From positions 32,001 to 96,000 of the forward strand of contig JBHIAE010000005.1 in NCBI GenBank assembly GCA_046758445.1: a DNA stretch of 64,000 nucleotides, written 5' to 3'. A program made the translations under genes and the position numbers. Shown piece after piece: positions 1 through 51,423 of the stretch (its first letter is position 1; each line of letters opens with the position of its first letter). The DNA comes from Candidatus Thorarchaeota archaeon (GTDB lineage: Archaea; Asgardarchaeota; Thorarchaeia; Thorarchaeales; Thorarchaeaceae). The notes below the pieces were generated by a model that was given only the letters and a program-made list of their open reading frames with translations, was not told where the DNA came from and did not search any database.

Positions 1-1019
1 TTTGTTTCTGATTCCTTGACAGACAAGTGAACTCCGAGCGGAGTAGGATCACAGATTGCTCTTGGTGCAAGATGAATTGACTCAAGTAGATGTCGCCTGG
101 CAGCAAGCTTTCGGGGCTTTCTAAGTGTTCCACAGAGTCCTTTGACAGCAATATGCTCCTCCGTTCCAAGAGGGACTTCGATTGCATCGTGCAGGTGTAC
201 TATCGCTTGCAACTGGGTTTCACTTTCAGCACTGTGTGGTAATGCCTGAATGAGCTCCAGTATTCTACTGAACCCTCTCCATGAGTAGGTGTCAATATGC
301 TTCCTGAGATGCCGGACAAGGGGCTCCATTTTTGAGTCCGTTGATCTTTTGAACCACATTTCCCACCATTTCTCTCTGGAATCTCGTGACATCAGGGCAT
401 AGGCAATCCCATTTCCCACGGCTTGGCTCAATTCGAGAGTCCGGCGTGGCTCACTGAGCAGTTGAAGGAAAGCCGCTCTCGTGACAAGGCCAATGCCTCC
501 TGCGGCCTCAAGAAGATCCTGCTCAAACACCAAAACTCCGTCGCCATTCAGTTCAAGTCCGAACCCCTGGCTAGTTGATTCAATCTTCCCTCGGGTCACG
601 TATGTCGTTGGGAATTCAGGTTCTTTCCGTCCAAGTACGCGAGCAACCTTCTTGATTTCACGAGATAGGTCCTGTCTCAGTTCTTCAGTTGCCTCAATTC
701 TCAGCTCCTCCTCGGTCGGAGGTTTCACCTTCTCGTACTTAGCCAGAAGACGAGCGTTCTTCCTTATCTTCTCGTACTGCGCGTGCTCGACATTCTCCCC
801 TACTAGCATCACTCCATTTGTGTCAAAGAAGTAGACTCTGACATAGTCAACATTGACTACTCCAACAAGAAATGTGATTCCTTGAATCTTCGAGAAATGT
901 TTACGGATGGTCGCAGCCTTGACACGCAGGACATCTACGGTGGAAGCTCCCGTTTCTTGAAACTGCCGCTCGCCGAATGAAGCAATCTCCTTGGGAACAC
1001 CACGAACCTTGCGTGTCAA
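1..1019 (-). CDS. Hypothetical protein, 3' end runs off the window (partial; not in the ORF track)
   Basis: Read by hand on the minus strand: TTG at 1019, preceded by GAGGGA, opens MTRKVRGVPKEIASFGERQFQE... with no stop before position 1. Confidence 0.75.
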   Translation of the reverse strand, partial: MTRKVRGVPKEIASFGERQFQETGASTVDVLRVKAATIRKHFSKIQGITFLVGVVNVDYVRVYFFDTNGVMLVGENVEHAQYEKIRKNARLLAKYEKVKPPTEEELRIEATEELRQDLSREIKKVARVLGRKEPEFPTTYVTRGKIESTSQGFGLELNGDGVLVFEQDLLEAAGGIGLVTRAAFLQLLSEPRRTLELSQAVGNGIAYALMSRDSREKWWEMWFKRSTDSKMEPLVRHLRKHIDTYSWRGFSRILELIQALPHSAESETQLQAIVHLHDAIEVPLGTEEHIAVKGLCGTLRKPRKLAARRHLLESIHLAPRAICDPTPLGVHLSVKESET

Positions 1020-1088
1020 CCTAGATCCCTCACTGAATGACAGTTGACGGTTCCGCCTGATAAGAGTGACTACAATGTTTCGACAAAC

Positions 1089-40526: not shown

Positions 40527-41333
40527 TCAGATTCCGAGATAGGCCAAGATTACGAGAGCGGCGTTGTTGAGGCCATGTGCCACAGTGGGGCCCATAATTG
40601 AGTAGTTCCTCTTCTGAGCCAGGCCTCCAAGGAAGAGTCCAATTACAAGACGTGTTGGAAAGCCAAGTGGTTCAAGATGCATCAAAGCGAAAACGATGCT
40701 TGTGACTATCAGTGCATAGAGCTGGGGTCTTGACTGTCGCGAGCTGAAGTACAATTCCATACGTCGCTGCAGGAATCCTCTGAACAGCAACTCCTCACTA
40801 AACCCAACGATAAGGAACATGGCAGCAATCCACACAGCTGCTTCAAGACCACTTGATATGACGAAAAGTGACTCATCGCCAATTCCGGGTCTTCCAGCAA
40901 TGAGGTCGATGAAGAATGTGATAGTATAGTTGGCAAAGAGAATCAATATGCCCACGCCAAGTCCGATTACTACTTCCTTCGCTGAACCTAATCTGGAAAG
41001 CCCAATCGACTTCAGACTGAGCCCATTCCTTCTTACATACCATAATGGTGGAAATATGAGGCCTATCTCCGCGAAGGTTATGAGCAAGAGAGCAGCGGGG
41101 TCGATTATGATGGTCATGGTCACAACATCAATGTAGATCAGCCCGGCAGCCATCATAGGGACCATCATTACGAATGTGAGGAGGATGGTCAAGCCAAACG
41201 CCACGCCAGTAAGAACGAAGATATGGAAGAGTCTGTCCCAATCGATCTCGCGTTCCATCTCGGCTCCTGGAACGAAAATGTCAATGCCTGAGTATTCTTT
41301 CATCTCCGCGGAATCTGGATCATAGACTGCCAA
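40527..41333 (-). CDS. CPBP (Abi/type II CAAX) intramembrane protease
   Basis: EELLFRG, FALMH, HGLNN. Confidence 0.9.
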   Translation of the reverse strand: MAVYDPDSAEMKEYSGIDIFVPGAEMEREIDWDRLFHIFVLTGVAFGLTILLTFVMMVPMMAAGLIYIDVVTMTIIIDPAALLLITFAEIGLIFPPLWYVRRNGLSLKSIGLSRLGSAKEVVIGLGVGILILFANYTITFFIDLIAGRPGIGDESLFVISSGLEAAVWIAAMFLIVGFSEELLFRGFLQRRMELYFSSRQSRPQLYALIVTSIVFALMHLEPLGFPTRLVIGLFLGGLAQKRNYSIMGPTVAHGLNNAALVILAYLGI

Positions 41334-41466: not shown

Positions 41467-43479
41467 GTGGTGAGTCTACAATTGGATGGAGATGCTGAGC
41501 CAACACCCGTGAGGGGGACTGCACTCCTAGTTATCACCATCATCATTGTCGCTATTTCTCTGGGCGCCGCCGTACTACCACGAAATGGACCTACACCGGA
41601 TCTTAGAGTTAGAGTTGCAGTCATTGACTCAGGTATCACGAAAGACGGAGAGCTTCTTGCGAGAGTTGTGGCAGAAACGAGCTTCATAAACTCAACCTTC
41701 GGCTACAATGCAGTGGACAACTCAACTGAGGATAGCCAACCTAATGGTAGTCCGCATGGAACATATGTTGCAAAGATACTCTCGCGCAAAGCCCCGGATG
41801 CCGCCATTGTCAATGCGAAGGTCGTAACGGCGAACAACACCGCAACTATTGAGGGCATCATCAGCGCGATTCGCTGGGCTGTTGACGAGGAGAACTGTAG
41901 CGTCATCAACATCAGTCTCGGCACTCTTCCAACCACGAAGAGTCAACTAGGTGAAGTGGTGAAATGGGCATTTGAGAGGGGTGTTTCGATTGTGGCGGCT
42001 GCCGGAAACAACGGCATGGGTGGGGTGGCTGGGACCTCGATCGAATCCCCTGCAGTCAATCCAGAGGTTATTGCAGTGGGTGCGACTGATGACAGAAACA
42101 GAATATACGATTTCTCGGCGAGAGGACCCCTCTGGGACCGGACCATCAAACCTGACATAAGTGCACCCGGTTTCTATACAGAAAACGGGGTTACCGTGTT
42201 CGGGACTAGCTATGCTACTCCTGTAGTTTCAGCGGCCGCCGTCAGACTCATCGAGTTCTGCGAAGAGAATGACCTATCTTGGACACCGGGTATGATAAAG
42301 GCCACATTACTGGCAAGTGCAACTCATCTCTCCGTAGAAGAATGGGAAGTAGGGGCGGGTGTTGTTGACTTGGTTGAAGCCCTGTCCTTGATCGAGAACG
42401 CAATGGAAAGCGAAGGCCTTCCACAGATTGCAGCACTCTCTCCAACCTCCGGTCCTTTTAGCTTTGAACGTTGGTTTGTGAATTCTACCACTCACGTGTC
42501 TCTATCAGTGTTTTGCAGCAACATCACGACATTCTCGATTCTCTATGCAGGCTCTGCTTCGGAATGGGTGACGGGACCCCAAAACGTCACCGCTAATCAG
42601 ATCGGCAAATTCCACTTTGAAATCAGAGTCGTGGCGAACGAAACTCAAAACGATCTCGACCTAGAAGTAGTTCTCATCTCTCCCGGCTACAGCTTCCTCA
42701 GAGCAAGTTTCACCTTTGACGCAGCATCTCCTCAGGCAAGGATTGCATTTGATTTTAGTCATACTCCATGGCTCATTGATTCCATCTATGGACAGTTCAA
42801 GAGTATGTACGAGCTGATTACACAGGCAGGAATTGCAGTCGAGGAGATCAGGTTTCCACAAGAGATCATTTCAAAGAATCTCACCGAGTATGATGCAATC
42901 TTCATCGTGGATCCTAGTGCTTGGTACTATTCAATGCTCGACAACGAAACCATTCCCGCTCCTATTTTCTCATATTCCCCGGCGGAGATTACATCGTACA
43001 CGGACTATTGGAATGCAGGTGGAAGCCTCATTGTTTTGGGACTTGGGAACTCCAGCCTCAACCTATCATCAGCGAACGAGCTACTTTGGCCATTTGGATT
43101 TCAATTGAATTACGATCAGATACCGGCCGTCACAATTGTTGTGAATGGAGTATCCTCCACCGAATTGATAACGGACATACAGGAGCACAACGCGACCTCT
43201 GGAATAGGTTCTTTCGATTTCAACGGTTGCTCAGTGAACTACACTGGAGGAGCCTACTCTCTGGCTCAGACTGAGGTCAGCTTTCTTCTTACCAACGGTT
43301 CGCTGAGTCAGGAGAACCGAACGGTCATGGCTGCACTAGAAGGAGCAGGTGGAGGAAGAATGATTGTGTCTGGCAGCAATTTCCTGTTTGACAATTGGGG
43401 AATATCAGGCGGATACCAATCCGATCAGAATGCGCTTTTTGTTCTTCAGATTACAAAATGGTTGACAGGCATTATTTGA
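41467..43479 (+). CDS. Membrane-anchored S8 subtilase, site-1-protease (MBTPS1)-like
   Basis: Catalytic D (VAVIDSG), H (HGTYVA) and S (GTSYATP), oxyanion AAGN, N-terminal TM, many N-x-S/T sequons, C-terminal domain with GGRMIVSG. Confidence 0.88.
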   Translation: MVSLQLDGDAEPTPVRGTALLVITIIIVAISLGAAVLPRNGPTPDLRVRVAVIDSGITKDGELLARVVAETSFINSTFGYNAVDNSTEDSQPNGSPHGTYVAKILSRKAPDAAIVNAKVVTANNTATIEGIISAIRWAVDEENCSVINISLGTLPTTKSQLGEVVKWAFERGVSIVAAAGNNGMGGVAGTSIESPAVNPEVIAVGATDDRNRIYDFSARGPLWDRTIKPDISAPGFYTENGVTVFGTSYATPVVSAAAVRLIEFCEENDLSWTPGMIKATLLASATHLSVEEWEVGAGVVDLVEALSLIENAMESEGLPQIAALSPTSGPFSFERWFVNSTTHVSLSVFCSNITTFSILYAGSASEWVTGPQNVTANQIGKFHFEIRVVANETQNDLDLEVVLISPGYSFLRASFTFDAASPQARIAFDFSHTPWLIDSIYGQFKSMYELITQAGIAVEEIRFPQEIISKNLTEYDAIFIVDPSAWYYSMLDNETIPAPIFSYSPAEITSYTDYWNAGGSLIVLGLGNSSLNLSSANELLWPFGFQLNYDQIPAVTIVVNGVSSTELITDIQEHNATSGIGSFDFNGCSVNYTGGAYSLAQTEVSFLLTNGSLSQENRTVMAALEGAGGGRMIVSGSNFLFDNWGISGGYQSDQNALFVLQITKWLTGII

Positions 43480-44112: not shown

Positions 44113-44949
44113 CTATGGTTCTACCCAGAACATCCTATCCCTGATCTCTTCAATTGGAGTTGACCAAGTGTGGTCCTTCAAATCAGCTTGAGCCATCAAC
44201 GGAACTTCATCATCAATCATGAATGACTCAAGATGTCCGCAAAAGAAGAGTGACGTGATATCCACTGTCTTCATCAAGTTGTCACTGATGTCCAGCCAGA
44301 GCAGGTTCTCGCATTCCATCAGTGGAAGCAGATCGATCTGCAGTATCTTCGTATTCCGCAGCCAGAGGCCTTCAAGCGATGCGCAGCTCCTGAGTGGCGA
44401 GATGTCTATTTCATCAAATCGGTTATTCTCCAGAAACAACTCTTGGAGGTTTGTGCATTTCGACAATGGTCGCAAGTCCACGCCAATCAGTTCATTGTTG
44501 TCGAGTCTCAGGAATCTAAGAGCTGAGCATTTGCTGAGAGGTGACAGGTCTAGGATCGAAAAGCTATTGGATTGAAGATTGAGTTCTTTCAGACGTTTGC
44601 ACTTCATCAAAGGTGTTAGATCAATTCGCTGTAGTCTATTCATCTCTAGTGAAAACGTGTCAAGGCTCTTGCACTTCCCAAGGGATGTGATATCAATTAA
44701 TGCGAGGAGATTTGAGCCGAGAGAGAGTATTTCGAGGTCCTGACATTTTCCGAGTGGTTCTAGGTCAATGCTGCTGATAGAGTTGCTTGACAGATTCAGC
44801 TCTCGTGGATTCGGGCATTCTGCTAGGGGTGAAAGATCGACTCCTACTATGTTTCGACCAGACAGATCCAATTCGGCCGTGTCATCACCCTTATCGAGAT
44901 GCAGCTCCTCTCCACTTTCATTCGTGAAGTTGACACGTATATCAGGCAT
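44113..44949 (-). CDS. Leucine-rich repeat protein (about 9 x 22-aa LxLxxNxLxxIDLxPLxxC repeats)
   Basis: Repeats visible directly in the translation. Confidence 0.9.
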   Translation of the reverse strand: MPDIRVNFTNESGEELHLDKGDDTAELDLSGRNIVGVDLSPLAECPNPRELNLSSNSISSIDLEPLGKCQDLEILSLGSNLLALIDITSLGKCKSLDTFSLEMNRLQRIDLTPLMKCKRLKELNLQSNSFSILDLSPLSKCSALRFLRLDNNELIGVDLRPLSKCTNLQELFLENNRFDEIDISPLRSCASLEGLWLRNTKILQIDLLPLMECENLLWLDISDNLMKTVDITSLFFCGHLESFMIDDEVPLMAQADLKDHTWSTPIEEIRDRMFWVEP

Positions 44950-45345: not shown

Positions 45346-48300
45346 ATGAGAAGAAATGGATTAGTCTTCATGTTTACTGTTGTCCTATTTGGATTCATTT
45401 TGTCAATGCCAACTAGCTCCTTCGTGTCTATTGGAGCACAGAATCTTGATCAGCGTCCTTATTCGAAGTATGAATTGTCGGGGTTTGGCGACAACCTAGA
45501 GGACTTTGTGGATCAGACTTCAGACCTTCACGCACCGGCGGACTTGGGCACACACTCGACATTTTCGGATATCCAAGACTATGGAGTCAACTACGACCAA
45601 ATGCAGGAAGAAGACACAGGTGGCATAGGTGGCGGGGTCCTAGTTGAAGACTACCTAGATCAGACAAGCGACGTTGATATTTCGCCAGACTTGGGCAGTC
45701 ACGGTGCATTTGCAGACCTTCAAGATACCGATGATACCTACGACCTGCTGTCAGAGGCTCTGCCTACGGCGCCTCCTGTTTTCCAAAGCAGTGCAGAGTC
45801 TTGGTCTGCAGTAGGTCAAGCTGGCCACAGTTTCAACTACACTCTTACTACCTTTTCTGGCGATAATCGACTTGTTGTTGTTGGAGTCGCTTGGGAAGAC
45901 GCCGAGGCAACTGCAGATGTTACAGATATCACTTTCAACTCTGTATCAATCGCTACAGAACAAATCGCAGAGATAGTCGCTGATGTAGGATTCTCTACGT
46001 ATGTGGCTGGTTGGTATATACTTGACGCGAATCTGCCTTCAAAAGCTGGGTCCTACAACATAACTGTCACTGTAAGTGAAGCTATAACAAGAGAGATCAT
46101 GGTGTTTGTAGCAGAATACACCGGAGTCGAACAAGAGGCGCCTGACGACACAGGAAGTCACCAGACACCGAATCCAGGTGATACGACCTTCACAGTCACC
46201 GCGAACGAGGACAATGCATTGATTGTTGCTGTTGGGTGTACTGGGGGAACAACCTCCATGACATCGGTGACTGGTGGTATCAGCAACCACGAGGATGTAT
46301 CCGATCCTACAGTTACTTCAGAGGGTGGTGCAATAGCGGACTATATTGGTGCAACATCAGGTGACCACACTGTTGGTTGGACTGGACTTGCTACCAGAGC
46401 CTGTTCGATCGGTGGTGTCTGGAGTGGTGCTGCCAGTTCATCCGATTATCAGATGGACCTAGAGGTTCAGTTCACGACAGTTGTCGATTTCTTGATAACT
46501 GAAGAGTTGTGTATTAAGACGGGGACATTCTCAGGCTCAGAGGACATCAATGTCACATATTGGAGCGGGTCTTCTTGGACAAGCATTGCCTCCGATTTGA
46601 CTGCTAGTCAGTGGAACAACTTCACAGTCTCATTGACAAGTTCAACCTTCGCAATCAAGTTTGGTGGATCGTCCACAACCTCTGATGCAGTGTTAGACAC
46701 TTGGAACATTGATTCAGTCCTACTTCAGGTTTCAGGAGCTGGATCGAAAGAGGACGTAGTGGATGTACAGAGCGATGTAGATGGTTCTGCTGATGTTGGG
46801 ACTCACAGCTCATTTGCAGAGATGCAGACCGCCGACCTCACGTATGATACATTGACGGAAATCGACACCGCCGGTTCACTGTCAGGAACTGTCGGCTACA
46901 CGTTTCCAGGCTTCACCGATCTAAATCAACTTGAGATAAATGAGATAATACTCTGTCAGTTCTCTCTTGGAGAAGACAATGTCAACGTGTATAGCATGAG
47001 TGCTTACGGAAGGATTGATGCCGGCTTTGGTACAGAAGTAGTCAGATATCTGATATACGCTGACAGTGCTGGTTCCCCTGGGGCCTATCTAGGCCCAACC
47101 AACCAGGGCACTTGGACCGCATCAGCAAGTTGGACTACATTAGATATGGAAACGAATCTCACTTTGAGTTCTGGCGATTATTGGCTGGGCCTATGGAGCA
47201 ATGACGAGATAAGGCCCTACTATCAGTTCGGTGCAGCTGGTCAGACTGCCATGAACGTGAGTAGCAGTAGCTATCCTGCACAGCCGGATCCATTCGGTTC
47301 CGTCACTGAATGGCATAATCGGGAGGTTTCAGTGTATTTCAGTTGGGACAAGGATCTTCCAAATAACTATGAACTCGATCTTGAGGTTCAATTCACTGAT
47401 ATTCCATATCTGTTGCCTGTTGAGAAGCTCTGCATTTACGCGGGAGCCGTTGATGCCGAGGACATTATTGTTCAAATTCGGACTGATGGTGGCACATGGT
47501 CAAACGTAACTACTGATCTGACGGGCTCATCTTGGAACAATCACACGATCAAACTCAATACCACCACCCTGACCATACGTTTCATCGACGGTACGCCGAC
47601 CGGTGATACTAGTCAGGGAACATGGCAGATTGACATCGCTCTGATGTATCTCGAACATCCAGGTGGCGGTGCTGGCTCCATTTCATTTAGGGCCTTTGCA
47701 GCCGCAGTCGGACAAGACACCACTTCTGTCATAATCAATAAACCCAGTGGAACGATACAGAACGATGTGATGGTGTGTACGGTCTTAACTACCGGTGGAA
47801 CTGGAGTGACTTTCACGCTGACAGGATGGACTATCATTCAACGACACGATAGCGGAACAACACTCGCTCAGGCACAGTATTACAAGGTCGCAGGTGCAAG
47901 CGAACCAGCAACATATACCATTTCATTCAGTCCACAAGTTGTTGGAGCGGCTGTTGGTATCGCAACCTACATTGGAGTGGACACCACAACTCCAATAGAC
48001 GCGTACAGTGGGCAGGTAAATGCTGCATCCACAAGTGTCACAGCCCCTTCTATCACTACGACATCAGCAAATGCTATGCTAGTAGGAGGATTTGGGACTT
48101 TCGTACAGACTACTATCACACCAGCCACAGGCATGACAGAACGCTATGATATTGTCGGTGGAATCGGTGGTGACGACCAAATAACGGATGAGGTAGCTGA
48201 TGAAGTAAAAGCCACAGCAGGCGCAACTGGAACACGAGTAGCCACTGCAGGACTAAGTGCGGTTAGTATCGGACAACTGATTGCTCTGAAACCCGCTGCA

Positions 48301-51300
48301 CCGACTAACTACATGCTAGACCTAGAGGTTGGATGGACGGCAGCCGATTTCGATGAAACGAATGAGGAATTATGTATCTATCCAGTCACAGGTGGTGGTT
48401 GGCCTTCTGAAGACATCAAGGTGGATGTCTGGAATGGTGCATGGACCAACGTGATAGCAGATCTCACTCCTGACCAATGGAACAATGTGAGCATTAGCAA
48501 TTATCTTGCGGGGATTACATTTGAGATTCGTTTTCTTGGTGGAACTGAAACAAGTGATACAACTCAGGATACTTGGGAGATTGATGCAGTTCTGCTTCAT
48601 ACATGGACACTCAGCTACGCTCCGGCGAATGATCAAGCACCAACTTTGGACAATCCAAGCGACACTGACAATATGTATGCTCAATATCTAGAGTATCAGG
48701 TCACAGTCTTTGTTTCTGACCAGAATGGTTTCGCAGACATAGACTACCTAGAGATCGGATTATGGGACAATAGTCAAACTACAGAATACTGTCGATTCAG
48801 ATACGATGAGGATACAAATACATTCACTGAGGAATATGATGGTGGGACCTATGTGTCCCTCAATTCAGGAGGCTCCTCGGCAGTTGAGAGTGGTAATGAC
48901 ATTGATGCAACTTTCTACTTCACTATAGATTGGGACTTCCCTGATGCCACAGATCTTGATGCACAATGCTACGTCATTGATACACAGACGGAATCAACCA
49001 ACACATGGTTTGAGGTCGATTGGGACGTGGAAACACGTCTGGACTACTCTGTCACTCCAAGCATAGATGATGGCCTTGGTACACCTGACAGAGGCAATCT
49101 AGACGGTTCCTTCTCATTGACTGGAACCGTTGTCTACTACATGTCAGTAGATGACAATCCATCATCCGCTATTGTCGATGTATTTGTATCAGGTTCTGAA
49201 TACGGAACAAACGCAGGCCCCTGGAACGATTTGACACTTAGTTCGGGGGTCTTTGATGTAACGTGCTATGCAGACGATCTAGTAGGTCAAGATACTTACA
49301 CAGTCAAGGTTGTTGAGGAAGGAGCAGGTGCGGGCGGCACGGACCTTTACTACTCAACAAGTGTTACGGACACATACATAGCAGATAGTGTTCAGGTTCA
49401 ATCCTACTCTGTTGGTGATGATAGAGTAAACGTAAATGATAATGTGAATATTGATGTGACTCTGTACTATGACTACGATGATACAGTTGTTACAGATGGG
49501 GCAGTGACAATCAATACTATATCCGCGACTCACCAGGGTGCAGGTGTCTGGAGAATCACTGACTCAGAAGCAGCTGTAATGGCGAATACCTACGACATTG
49601 TTGCATATTCTGGTGGAATCCATGGACTCGCCAATGTTGACCAAAATGGACAGTCCCAGCAAGTAATCTGGGATCAGATTGTGGTGCAGACAACCGTTGC
49701 TGATGATACACGTGTCAACATCAATGACAATGTTGAGGTGCGAGTCACTCTCTGGTTGGCCTACAACAGCTCATTCCTTGGAGCTGGAGATAGTGTCACA
49801 CTTGACGATACACCAATGACTTGGGATGCAGCCAACTCTTGGTTCGATCTGACTGTATCACAGACATCTGTTGGTCTATGGACCTACTTTGTCAATGCAA
49901 GCACCGAAGCTACCTTTGGAATCACAGCCATTGACACTAACAGTCAGAGCGTGGATGTCATCTGGGATAGAGTCCTCGTAGCATCCATAGCGATTGATGA
50001 AACCTACGTAGACCTGAACGAATTCGTACAGGTAACAGTCCAACTTGAGCATGAGTATGACCGTAGTTCAGTATTGAGTGGAACATTCGGCATCAACGGT
50101 GAAGCGATGACTCACGTAGGCTCAGGAGTCTGGACTGCTGATGTAATGAGGTCTGCATATCAATCATTGTCCTTTGATGACTTCACGGAATGCAACGCCG
50201 ACGCGTACGGAATTACGGGGTATAACATGGATGGCAATAGCGCTACAGCCTACTGGGATAGAATCGAATTCTATAGCGGACAGGCCGTCGATGCAAGAAT
50301 CAATGTTGGCAGCGACGCGACTATCATTTGGGAGGTCCGCCTGGAAACTGCAGGAATCTCAATCACCTCCGATCTAACGGCAGTCGCAAGCGGGTCGCTG
50401 CCGTTGGTCTTCGTGACTGATAGCTGGAGGATTTCAGACTCACAAGGAAACGTCGGAAGTGCTTCTTTCTCAATCACATCCGCTTCATTCGGAGGAATTG
50501 ATGCCTTTGTGCAGACCATAGCAGATGTGACTGTGATATGGGACCGCGTGATAGTTGAAACCACAACCGCTACGCCAGTATCTGTCGAAATCAACCAGCC
50601 TCTAGAAGTGCATGTGATGTTAGCTTATGAATATGACAATACGCCGGTGACTGATGGACTTGTCAGTCTTGATGTAGAAGGTGATTCCATTGGGATGACC
50701 TACTCGTTGGGAAATGGCTATTGGTCTGCTGATGTTACAAAGTCAGTGGCTGGTGATTACTCAATCGTGGTCGCAAGCGTTTCAGGCAATAGCCACGGCA
50801 TCACCGCACTTAATGTGGATGGAAAACAGGTCGTTGTGCAATTCAGCGGAACCGTCGCCACTCCTGGAAACCCCTTGATGCTGCAGATTGCCGTAGTAGG
50901 TGGTGCTGGGATTGGTTTGGTCGGCACGGCCATCGTGCTAATGCGACGGCGAAGCGCCAGACCTGCACCCGCCTTAGGCGAAATTGACCCTATAGCGTTT
51001 GGAGTAGGTGACCCAACAGCAGCCGAAGCGACTCCTGAGGAGGCCTTTGTAGAGATAACAGCAGTTACGGTTACTGAGCCGGAGGAGGTTGGAGCTGTTG
51101 TGGCGCAGAAGCCGGTCGTTCAGCCTGAGGTTGACACTGAATCCATAGTCGGCGAAGTTGCGGAACTAGATGCGGCTGAGGTTTCTCCTGAAGCTCTGGA
51201 GATGGAGGAGGCGACTGTTGTCGAGAAACTAGAAGTGACTCCTGAAGAAGTTCCGACTCCCAAGGAGATTCCCTCAATTCCAAGGAATCTGGCACGACTT

Positions 51301-51423
51301 ACTAAGAGGGAGCTTTTTGACCTCCTTCCTGATGATATCAAGTCGGCTGCACCAGAGCTCAACAAGCTCAGAAAGAGGGAGCTACTAGATCTCGTCCGGT
51401 CACTCATCAGGCCTGAAGAATAG
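45346..51423 (+). CDS. Giant (2025-aa) single-pass surface protein with nested repeats, five Ig-like stalk repeats, TM helix and acidic cytoplasmic tail
   Basis: N-terminal signal peptide; D/T/S/G-rich; TM LQIAVVGGAGIGLVGTAIVLM followed by RRR. Confidence 0.88.
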   Translation: MRRNGLVFMFTVVLFGFILSMPTSSFVSIGAQNLDQRPYSKYELSGFGDNLEDFVDQTSDLHAPADLGTHSTFSDIQDYGVNYDQMQEEDTGGIGGGVLVEDYLDQTSDVDISPDLGSHGAFADLQDTDDTYDLLSEALPTAPPVFQSSAESWSAVGQAGHSFNYTLTTFSGDNRLVVVGVAWEDAEATADVTDITFNSVSIATEQIAEIVADVGFSTYVAGWYILDANLPSKAGSYNITVTVSEAITREIMVFVAEYTGVEQEAPDDTGSHQTPNPGDTTFTVTANEDNALIVAVGCTGGTTSMTSVTGGISNHEDVSDPTVTSEGGAIADYIGATSGDHTVGWTGLATRACSIGGVWSGAASSSDYQMDLEVQFTTVVDFLITEELCIKTGTFSGSEDINVTYWSGSSWTSIASDLTASQWNNFTVSLTSSTFAIKFGGSSTTSDAVLDTWNIDSVLLQVSGAGSKEDVVDVQSDVDGSADVGTHSSFAEMQTADLTYDTLTEIDTAGSLSGTVGYTFPGFTDLNQLEINEIILCQFSLGEDNVNVYSMSAYGRIDAGFGTEVVRYLIYADSAGSPGAYLGPTNQGTWTASASWTTLDMETNLTLSSGDYWLGLWSNDEIRPYYQFGAAGQTAMNVSSSSYPAQPDPFGSVTEWHNREVSVYFSWDKDLPNNYELDLEVQFTDIPYLLPVEKLCIYAGAVDAEDIIVQIRTDGGTWSNVTTDLTGSSWNNHTIKLNTTTLTIRFIDGTPTGDTSQGTWQIDIALMYLEHPGGGAGSISFRAFAAAVGQDTTSVIINKPSGTIQNDVMVCTVLTTGGTGVTFTLTGWTIIQRHDSGTTLAQAQYYKVAGASEPATYTISFSPQVVGAAVGIATYIGVDTTTPIDAYSGQVNAASTSVTAPSITTTSANAMLVGGFGTFVQTTITPATGMTERYDIVGGIGGDDQITDEVADEVKATAGATGTRVATAGLSAVSIGQLIALKPAAPTNYMLDLEVGWTAADFDETNEELCIYPVTGGGWPSEDIKVDVWNGAWTNVIADLTPDQWNNVSISNYLAGITFEIRFLGGTETSDTTQDTWEIDAVLLHTWTLSYAPANDQAPTLDNPSDTDNMYAQYLEYQVTVFVSDQNGFADIDYLEIGLWDNSQTTEYCRFRYDEDTNTFTEEYDGGTYVSLNSGGSSAVESGNDIDATFYFTIDWDFPDATDLDAQCYVIDTQTESTNTWFEVDWDVETRLDYSVTPSIDDGLGTPDRGNLDGSFSLTGTVVYYMSVDDNPSSAIVDVFVSGSEYGTNAGPWNDLTLSSGVFDVTCYADDLVGQDTYTVKVVEEGAGAGGTDLYYSTSVTDTYIADSVQVQSYSVGDDRVNVNDNVNIDVTLYYDYDDTVVTDGAVTINTISATHQGAGVWRITDSEAAVMANTYDIVAYSGGIHGLANVDQNGQSQQVIWDQIVVQTTVADDTRVNINDNVEVRVTLWLAYNSSFLGAGDSVTLDDTPMTWDAANSWFDLTVSQTSVGLWTYFVNASTEATFGITAIDTNSQSVDVIWDRVLVASIAIDETYVDLNEFVQVTVQLEHEYDRSSVLSGTFGINGEAMTHVGSGVWTADVMRSAYQSLSFDDFTECNADAYGITGYNMDGNSATAYWDRIEFYSGQAVDARINVGSDATIIWEVRLETAGISITSDLTAVASGSLPLVFVTDSWRISDSQGNVGSASFSITSASFGGIDAFVQTIADVTVIWDRVIVETTTATPVSVEINQPLEVHVMLAYEYDNTPVTDGLVSLDVEGDSIGMTYSLGNGYWSADVTKSVAGDYSIVVASVSGNSHGITALNVDGKQVVVQFSGTVATPGNPLMLQIAVVGGAGIGLVGTAIVLMRRRSARPAPALGEIDPIAFGVGDPTAAEATPEEAFVEITAVTVTEPEEVGAVVAQKPVVQPEVDTESIVGEVAELDAAEVSPEALEMEEATVVEKLEVTPEEVPTPKEIPSIPRNLARLTKRELFDLLPDDIKSAAPELNKLRKRELLDLVRSLIRPEE
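49381..50847 (+). repeat. Five tandem ~97-aa Ig-like repeats (D.RVN...Y.YD...G.W...VIWD)
   Basis: The first four repeats end in VIWD, VIWD, AYWD, VIWD; the fifth ends VQFS. Confidence 0.75.

Follow-up and report, generated by a model that had tools for sequence, protein, structure and literature searches.

A probable branched, three-headed surface module built by recursive insertion of a split jelly-roll domain into its own copies in an Asgard archaeon

In the single-level domain insertions classified in ECOD, a host folds around a guest with close termini, giving an A1-B-A2 architecture (PMC13114784). Most insertions in that survey are single-level, and it also describes the six-level nested architecture of Si3, an insertion in the beta' subunit of cyanobacterial RNA polymerase (PMC13114784). 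Si3 contains eight sandwich-barrel hybrid motifs (SBHMs), four of which are built from distant segments of the chain (PMC10895346). Here we describe a gene for a large putative surface protein, located in a 64,000-nucleotide stretch of contig JBHIAE010000005.1 (positions 32,001 to 96,000; "the window", whose numbering is used throughout), in which comparable nesting is predicted for another fold. The gene is an intact open reading frame on the forward strand (45346-51423), as are all the features described within it, and encodes 2025 amino acids (aa). A first-pass annotation had noted two repeated motifs, A and B, in its N-terminal half and had proposed that they fold together into one beta-sandwich that encloses further copies of itself. 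Literature searches aimed at nested or "Russian-doll" insertions in the surface proteins or adhesins of archaea turned up no publication on the A/B family. On the evidence assembled below, we consider it likely that the protein carries a branched three-headed module, formed by recursive domain insertion and mounted on a stalk with a membrane anchor, with the cassettes between the motifs as its heads.

Segment-wise self-BLAST confirmed that each motif occurs three times, at positions that agree with the first-pass annotation to within a few codons and in the same order: A1 A2 x B1 A3 y B2 z B3, where x, y and z denote the cassettes. Motif A is about 40 aa long (aa 50-92, 99-140 and 467-508) and motif B about 97 aa (aa 364-462, 671-769 and 985-1085). 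Matches among the B copies had E values of 2.8e-23 (B1/B3, 44% identity), 2.2e-21 (B1/B2) and 5.1e-17 (B2/B3), and those among the A copies 2.6e-6 (A1/A3) and 1.2e-5 (A2/A3). Hidden Markov models (HMMs) built from the copies detected these six elements and no others in the whole protein. An A together with its partner B is referred to below as a frame; the W, WNN and acidic positions of the frames hardly vary.

When the motifs are paired as brackets, A1 (45493-45621; HMM match, predicted local distance difference test score, pLDDT, 75-83) would supply the N-terminal half, about 40 aa, of an outer jelly roll or hub, which B3 (48298-48600; structure alignment and homologue identity) would close as its C-terminal half. 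The first inner domain, or pedestal 1, would consist of A2 (45640-45765; HMM match) and the closing half B1 (46435-46731), with cassette x, of a roughly 216-aa all-beta family, as head 1 between them (aa 141-363; 45766-46434; pLDDT 75-90). Pedestal 2 would likewise join A3 (46744-46869; HMM match) to B2 (47356-47652) around cassette y as head 2 (aa 509-670; 46870-47355; profile matches). B1 and B2 were each assigned by self-BLAST, HMM and structure alignment. Cassette z, the putative head 3 (aa 770-984; 47653-48297; modelled by AlphaFold2, AF2), lies directly in the loop of the hub, with no A/B frame around it. A hidden A motif before z was ruled out: a GGGAG linker joins B2 straight to z, and even a relaxed threshold gave no A match there. 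B3 is clearly an outer-type B, 61% identical to the outer B of the related protein P0003 and colinear into the stalk.

The pairing was examined in an AF2 model of aa 44-1095, computed from an alignment of 29 homologues of the same architecture. Mean pLDDT was 62.5, with values of 73-93 over every A, every B and x; cassettes y and z were poor. Pairings were read from structure alignments of the model to chains of the Protein Data Bank (PDB) by VIA-align, using aligned length and range. Single-domain carbohydrate-binding modules (CBMs) superposed on each of the three pairs. A2+B1 aligned with 6sgf_A of CBM86 (model 56..421; Z 10.7, root-mean-square deviation (rmsd) 3.0, 123 of 129 residues) and with 2cdp_A of CBM6 (model 55..419; Z 9.2, rmsd 3.3, 119 of 138 residues), A3+B2 with 1gwk_A of CBM29 (model 421..728; Z 10.0, rmsd 3.2, 120-121 of 141 residues), and A1+B3 with 2j22_A of CBM47 (model 7..1045; Z 8.6, rmsd 3.0, 122 of 137 residues). 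As each B provides about 100 residues, at least 20 of the aligned residues must come from upstream, and each CBM superposition begins at the partner A. Cassette x superposed separately (model 100-217), without A2. The model therefore places A1 with B3, A2 with B1 and A3 with B2, the arrangement that the first-pass annotation had foreseen.

In this predicted model all three A+B pairs adopt a two-sheet jelly roll of about 130 aa, of the CBM-type or galactose-binding-domain-like fold. The host domains are discontinuous, their aligned ranges spanning A to B across the cassettes, and A1...B3 encloses both A2...B1 and A3...B2, so that the guests are split copies of the host's own family. At the level of sequence families, none of the curated Pfam families of CBM, F5/8-C or related type was matched, and the CBM structural alignments have 6-15% sequence identity. 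When A1 (aa 46-97) and B3 (aa 982-1091) were modelled as separate chains from 25-row alignments, the score was 0.01, in a run without controls and with the fold of the partner uncertain, a result that weighs on neither side. Foldseek returned just multi-domain matches of low TM-score (for example reelin repeats and Cry toxins) for the 1052-residue model, a result that is uninformative at such length.

Comparison of homologues provided a second line of evidence. Searching with aa 40-1100 gave 70 relatives, which come from Bathyarchaeia and Asgard lineages (Thor-, Heimdall- and Promethearchaeota), and at a threshold of E ≤ 0.001 a B profile matched 908 proteins among 1.84 billion cluster representatives (clusters defined at 50% identity). 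Iterated A and B HMMs were then used to scan 206 retrieved proteins, with hits in 195. When A is read as an opening and B as a closing bracket, 124 of these 195 proteins give balanced words, as do 60 of the 83 that are seemingly complete at both ends. The balanced words comprise AB, ABAB, AABB (67 proteins), AABBAB, AABABB (25 proteins), AABABBAB, AAABBB, AAABBABB, A4B4, A5B5 and A6B6. Because many words are inherited, the count of proteins overstates their independence, and the diversity of balanced architectures, at least 11 of them, is the stronger point. Unbalanced words were mostly short fragments (BB, BBB) or had a surplus of B, partly due to short A motifs that escaped detection and to cassettes resembling B.

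If A and B are halves of one domain, uninterrupted copies should exist in other proteins, and these were found in P0118, P0168 and P0085. Contiguous A-B units occupy aa 33-165 of P0118 and aa 118-253 of P0168, with an A-to-B junction of 2-5 residues. P0085 reads A1 [A2 x B1] [A3 B2] B3, its second inner frame being empty, with A and B contiguous at 567-705. A+B therefore corresponds to one domain. A common cluster of cassettes of about 155 aa is colinear with the joined A+B profile (HHalign probability 93.8%, E 1.7e-7), and the innermost "doll" in many proteins is thus probably a diverged copy of this domain that is not split.

Several variants of the architecture were seen among the relatives. 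P0002, P0072 and P0031 have six A motifs, one cassette of 136-388 aa and six B motifs, the deepest self-nesting seen in the family; such A6-cassette-B6 proteins should form an out-and-back stalk. In P0147, P0169, P0167, P0154 and P0093, B seems to have a second insertion site, at about column 70 of the joined A+B profile, where inserts of 150-205 aa cut it into pieces of about 30 and 67 aa. Among 61 related genomes, 21 encode B domains, for the most part as two neighbouring copies (BB). One B-domain locus, L045 (CAZJYC010000069.1), belongs to a metagenome-assembled genome (MAG) labelled Eubacteriales, the other loci being archaeal; the label may reflect a binning error or a transfer.

Covariation was analysed in the balanced proteins. 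A and B segments were aligned to their own HMMs and mutual information (MI) between A and B columns was calculated with average product correction (APC). In the pooled set, bracket pairing gave top MI values of 0.40, 0.35 and 0.28, compared with at most 0.10 for in-order or deranged pairings in the same proteins. As a control, pairings were also permuted within single architectures, where consistent mispairing would retain any plain effect of inner or outer type. Bracket pairing gave 0.283 versus 0.156 for the mispaired set in AABB and 0.452 versus at most 0.295 in AABABB (six permutations), and it was the highest of six permutations in AAABBB, a set of six proteins only. The strongest covarying columns were A 19 and 33 with B 6 and 8, in the first B strand, and A 10-11 with B 9 and 72. 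Independently of the structure model, the covariation shows that each A forms one unit with its bracket partner B. Structure, uninterrupted domains, grammar and covariation are thus four independent lines in support of the proposal that A and B together make up one beta-sandwich, divided at a permissive loop; that the outer copy encloses two further copies is borne out by the structure alignment of A1+B3 around the inner pairs, by the grammar and by the covariation.

The first-pass annotation had described the three cassettes as unrelated. This is wrong for x and z, which belong to the same cassette family of about 216 aa. A direct comparison of x (aa 141-363) with z (aa 770-984) gives a weak match (E 0.001, 32% identity over 94 aa); each matches the homologue cassette family over its full length, x with E values of 1e-15 to 3e-59 and z with 1e-9 to 4e-20. 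The full-length matches of x, with E values reaching 3e-59, are to cassettes of P0003-5, P0016 and P0025. In other proteins, cassettes of this family sit inside an A...B pair, in first or second position. When z was modelled by AF2 with a family alignment of 47 sequences, pLDDT was 93.2 and the predicted TM-score 0.90, and the model is an all-beta domain of about 210 aa with long strands. No Pfam family was found for the x/z family, and a sequence-profile search of the PDB gave nothing below E 0.4. Among PDB folds the z model has no convincing relative: the best Z was 8.0, to the TNF-like C-terminal domain of Pgp3, Foldseek TM-scores did not exceed 0.29, and TNF/C1q-like and viral P-domain (projecting-domain) jelly rolls match z one half at a time. 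In the ESM Atlas, z superposes at TM 0.82-0.93 over about 205 residues on an unnamed domain. Proteins that carry this z-like domain include predicted surface-anchor, hydrolase-associated and PKD/LamG proteins of bacteria as well as phage proteins. The x/z fold is a candidate new domain family on the basis of these models.

Cassette y (aa 509-670) had no BLAST relative among the cassettes; by profile comparison it matches two clusters of homologue cassettes (4 and 6), of about 155-165 aa, with HHalign probabilities of 94-95%. Its language-model look-alikes were just unnamed phage and Bathyarchaeota clusters. Many homologues carry Laminin_G_3 or DUF2341 families, and neither (PF13385, PF10102) was matched by x, y or z.

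Relatives also hold different cassettes in otherwise conserved frames, as expected if the inserts can be swapped. Frames 80-86% identical over at least 115 residues enclose cassettes of different clusters and lengths, for example in P0028 versus P0079, P0008 versus P0020, and P0020 versus P0036. Mapped onto a tree of 305 frames, the cassette labels show 52 changes, where the minimum is 10 and shuffled labels give about 90; this is a rough count on a short, weakly resolved tree. Frames and cassettes are in part co-inherited and are often re-paired. Six Thorarchaeota relatives (P0024, P0033, P0041, P0011, P0029 and P0035) share the chassis of the protein. Their signal, A1 and A2 region is 38-49% identical to it, and B3 with the whole stalk is 44-59% identical over about 800-900 aa (55-59% in four of the six); in P0024, P0033, P0041 and P0011 the identity is 55-58% over about 850 aa. 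Inside the outer frame, these relatives have one cassette of about 140-160 aa and one B in place of x B1 A3 y B2 z. The first-pass annotation had also suggested that A and B sequences serve as recombination points for cassette exchange. Exchange over evolutionary time is real, and the A/B copies of this gene are not present-day recombination substrates, because they share 55-60% DNA identity with exact runs of at most 12 nucleotides. Recombination between the copies within the gene today was rejected on the same figures, 12 nucleotides being the longest exact run shared.

The conservation of the frames and the variability of the cassettes suggest a surface receptor or adhesin, in which the frames would act as adaptors or pedestals and the cassettes as variable ligand-binding heads; the label "adhesin" reflects topology and fold. 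A broader possibility, to which we give slightly less than even weight, is that the A/B frame is a general plug-and-socket adaptor. Its loop would take any cassette or framed unit, so that Bathyarchaeia and Asgard archaea could build, lengthen (in out-and-back stalks of as many as six frames), branch and re-equip their surface receptors, exchanging heads across lineages on an unchanged chassis. The roles of frame and cassette might also be reversed, the nesting being right and the frames being functional glycan-binding units, that is, true CBMs, with the cassettes as structural spacers. The frames do superpose on many ligand-binding CBMs (CBM6, 29, 32, 47 and 86), and their nearly invariant W, WNN and acidic positions fit such a role, the W and WNN positions being suggestive only of carbohydrate binding. 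However, conserved frames with fast-swapping cassettes are the usual signature of specificity residing in the cassettes, fold or calcium sites would account for the conserved residues just as well, and no Pfam CBM family matches. We therefore regard the reversed assignment as very unlikely.

Two further alternatives concern the nesting itself. A and B might be independent modules that pack with their linear neighbours, A serving for instance as a linker or as a strand on the next cassette, and their equal numbers might stem from block duplication. Motif A is short and its copies match weakly (E ~1e-5), and since architectures are inherited, many balanced words are not independent. Against this, contiguous A-B units of about 133 aa exist without a cassette, the CBM superpositions need residues of both A and B, x aligns alone (model 100-217) and leaves A2 out, all of the 11 or more architectures balance, and the covariation picks out the bracket partner; independent modules are therefore very unlikely. 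Equally improbable is a donor-strand-type arrangement in which the inner pairs close within the chain and A1 complements B3 of a neighbouring molecule to link copies into a surface array or filament: the gap of about 890 residues between A1 and B3 makes intra- and inter-chain closure both topologically possible, and archaeal surface filaments are reported to use donor-strand complementation (PMC12518558), but the AF2 monomer is predicted to close A1 on B3, the outer B directly follows the inner B in most homologues and nesting reaches six levels with short linkers, which favours closure in the chain, and nothing points specifically to oligomers.

Some observations weigh against the branched, recursively nested module that we favour. 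The predicted A-B contacts were deduced from aligned ranges and lengths, using the first and last aligned residue only. Closure of the outer pair A1+B3 depends on one structure-alignment row of middling Z (8.6), together with covariation and grammar, and cassette y is poorly modelled, with pLDDT below 50 in the long model. About one third of the relatives are unbalanced under automatic thresholds, though these are mostly fragments, missed A motifs or B-like cassettes. Pair-specific covariation could mean that A and B are co-inherited as one mobile unit, as opposed to being in physical contact. Finally, neither frames nor cassettes match a family of tested function, and ligand binding is putative. 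A/B pairing, nesting and cassette swapping over evolutionary time are shown here by prediction and comparison.

In the favoured arrangement, the basic unit would be a CBM-type (galactose-binding-domain-like) jelly roll of about 137 aa, with a permissive loop after the first 40 or so residues, at the junction of A and B. The chain would make the first strands of the hub (A1) and then leave it, begin pedestal 1 (A2), build head x and complete pedestal 1 (B1). Pedestal 2 would be made likewise from A3, head y and B2, and head z would be built directly, without a pedestal. On its return the chain would complete the hub (B3) and go on into the repeat stalk, the membrane helix and the cytoplasmic tail. 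A single open loop of the hub would thus bear, in series, pedestal 1 with x, pedestal 2 with y and bare z, the whole module standing at the far end of the stalk.

The remainder of the protein is consistent with a surface location. In an N-terminal hydrophobic signal or anchor segment (aa 1-32; 45346-45441), hydropathy peaks over aa 3-31, with RR in front. The beta-rich stalk (48601-50865) includes about five repeats of roughly 95-100 aa (aa 1327-1830; 49324-50835), identified by self-BLAST with inter-copy E values of 1e-9 to 3e-14. Repeat number is higher in relatives, and P0033 gives at least 10 staggered matches. By hydropathy, there is a single C-terminal transmembrane helix (aa 1843-1867; 50872-50946), followed by RRR. 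With a hydrophobic segment at the N-terminus and one helix at the C-terminus, the bulk of the protein should be extracellular and C-terminally anchored; the product is a predicted type I membrane protein whose head, the N-terminal 1050 or so residues, would be distal to the cell. The cytoplasmic tail (aa 1868-2025, about 160 aa; 50947-51423), as read from the sequence, has a long acidic linker, rich in E, P and V, that ends in a pair of similar KRELxDL helix motifs, LTKRELFDLL and LRKRELLDLV. The tail is kept in P0029 and P0035 at 27-37% identity. The whole protein matched no Pfam or NCBIfam family at E values up to 1, nor was any such family found for the stalk, the tail, cassette y or the x/z family.

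A search with an outer-B alignment found the closest relatives of the B3 segment in Thorarchaeota MAGs, where they are the outer B of AABB proteins (77-89% identity in translation), which places the host in the Thorarchaeota group of Asgard archaea. The gene is the single copy of the A/B type in its genome. Neighbouring genes include those for endonuclease dU, a Roadblock/LC7 protein, a leucine-rich repeat (LRR) protein, an S8 subtilase and a CPBP protease. The subtilase gene (41467-43479, +) lies upstream of the surface-protein gene and is divergent to the gene for the CPBP/Rce1-like intramembrane protease (40527-41333, -); the LRR protein gene (44113-44949, -) separates this pair from the surface-protein gene.

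The family spans about 900 clusters at 50% identity and normally grows by self-insertion under a clean bracket grammar; its nesting can branch, some of its frames are empty and its heads can be exchanged. It offers a rich natural data set on the folding and evolution of discontinuous domains and hints at how little-known archaea, including relatives of the ancestor of eukaryotes, vary their cell surface. The frame and the x/z cassette, having no Pfam family, are candidates for new family definitions, and the frame is a nature-tested scaffold for displaying one domain inside another. The plug-and-socket adaptor, if true, would allow archaea to diversify the binding specificity of their cell surface and would be a ready scaffold for protein engineering.

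Compared with described systems, the A+B pairs resemble CBM6, CBM29, CBM32, CBM47 and CBM86, which are modules of about 130-140 aa (Z 8.6-10.7, rmsd 3.0-3.3, 117-123 aligned residues). Unlike these, the A+B module is split after about 40 residues and hosts other domains, and its sugar binding is putative. Whereas the insertions in ECOD are mostly single-level, self-insertion is the rule in the A/B family and follows a full bracket grammar. A close parallel is Si3, an elongated arm in which one small beta domain is likewise inserted into its own copies and several domains are discontinuous. The protein is not a member of the Si3/SBHM group, as its fold matches are to CBM-type jelly rolls and it is a predicted membrane-anchored surface protein. 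The two differ in fold (CBM-type jelly roll as opposed to sandwich-barrel hybrid) and in cellular place, an extracellular archaeal protein as opposed to an insertion in the trigger loop of RNA polymerase. In addition, nesting in the A/B family branches, with two dolls and a bare cassette in one loop, bears unrelated terminal cassettes that are swapped among relatives, and varies in depth from 1 to 6 within one family. Recursive nesting is therefore already known from Si3, and the A/B family differs from it in its fold, its cellular place, its branching, its terminal cassettes and its variable depth.

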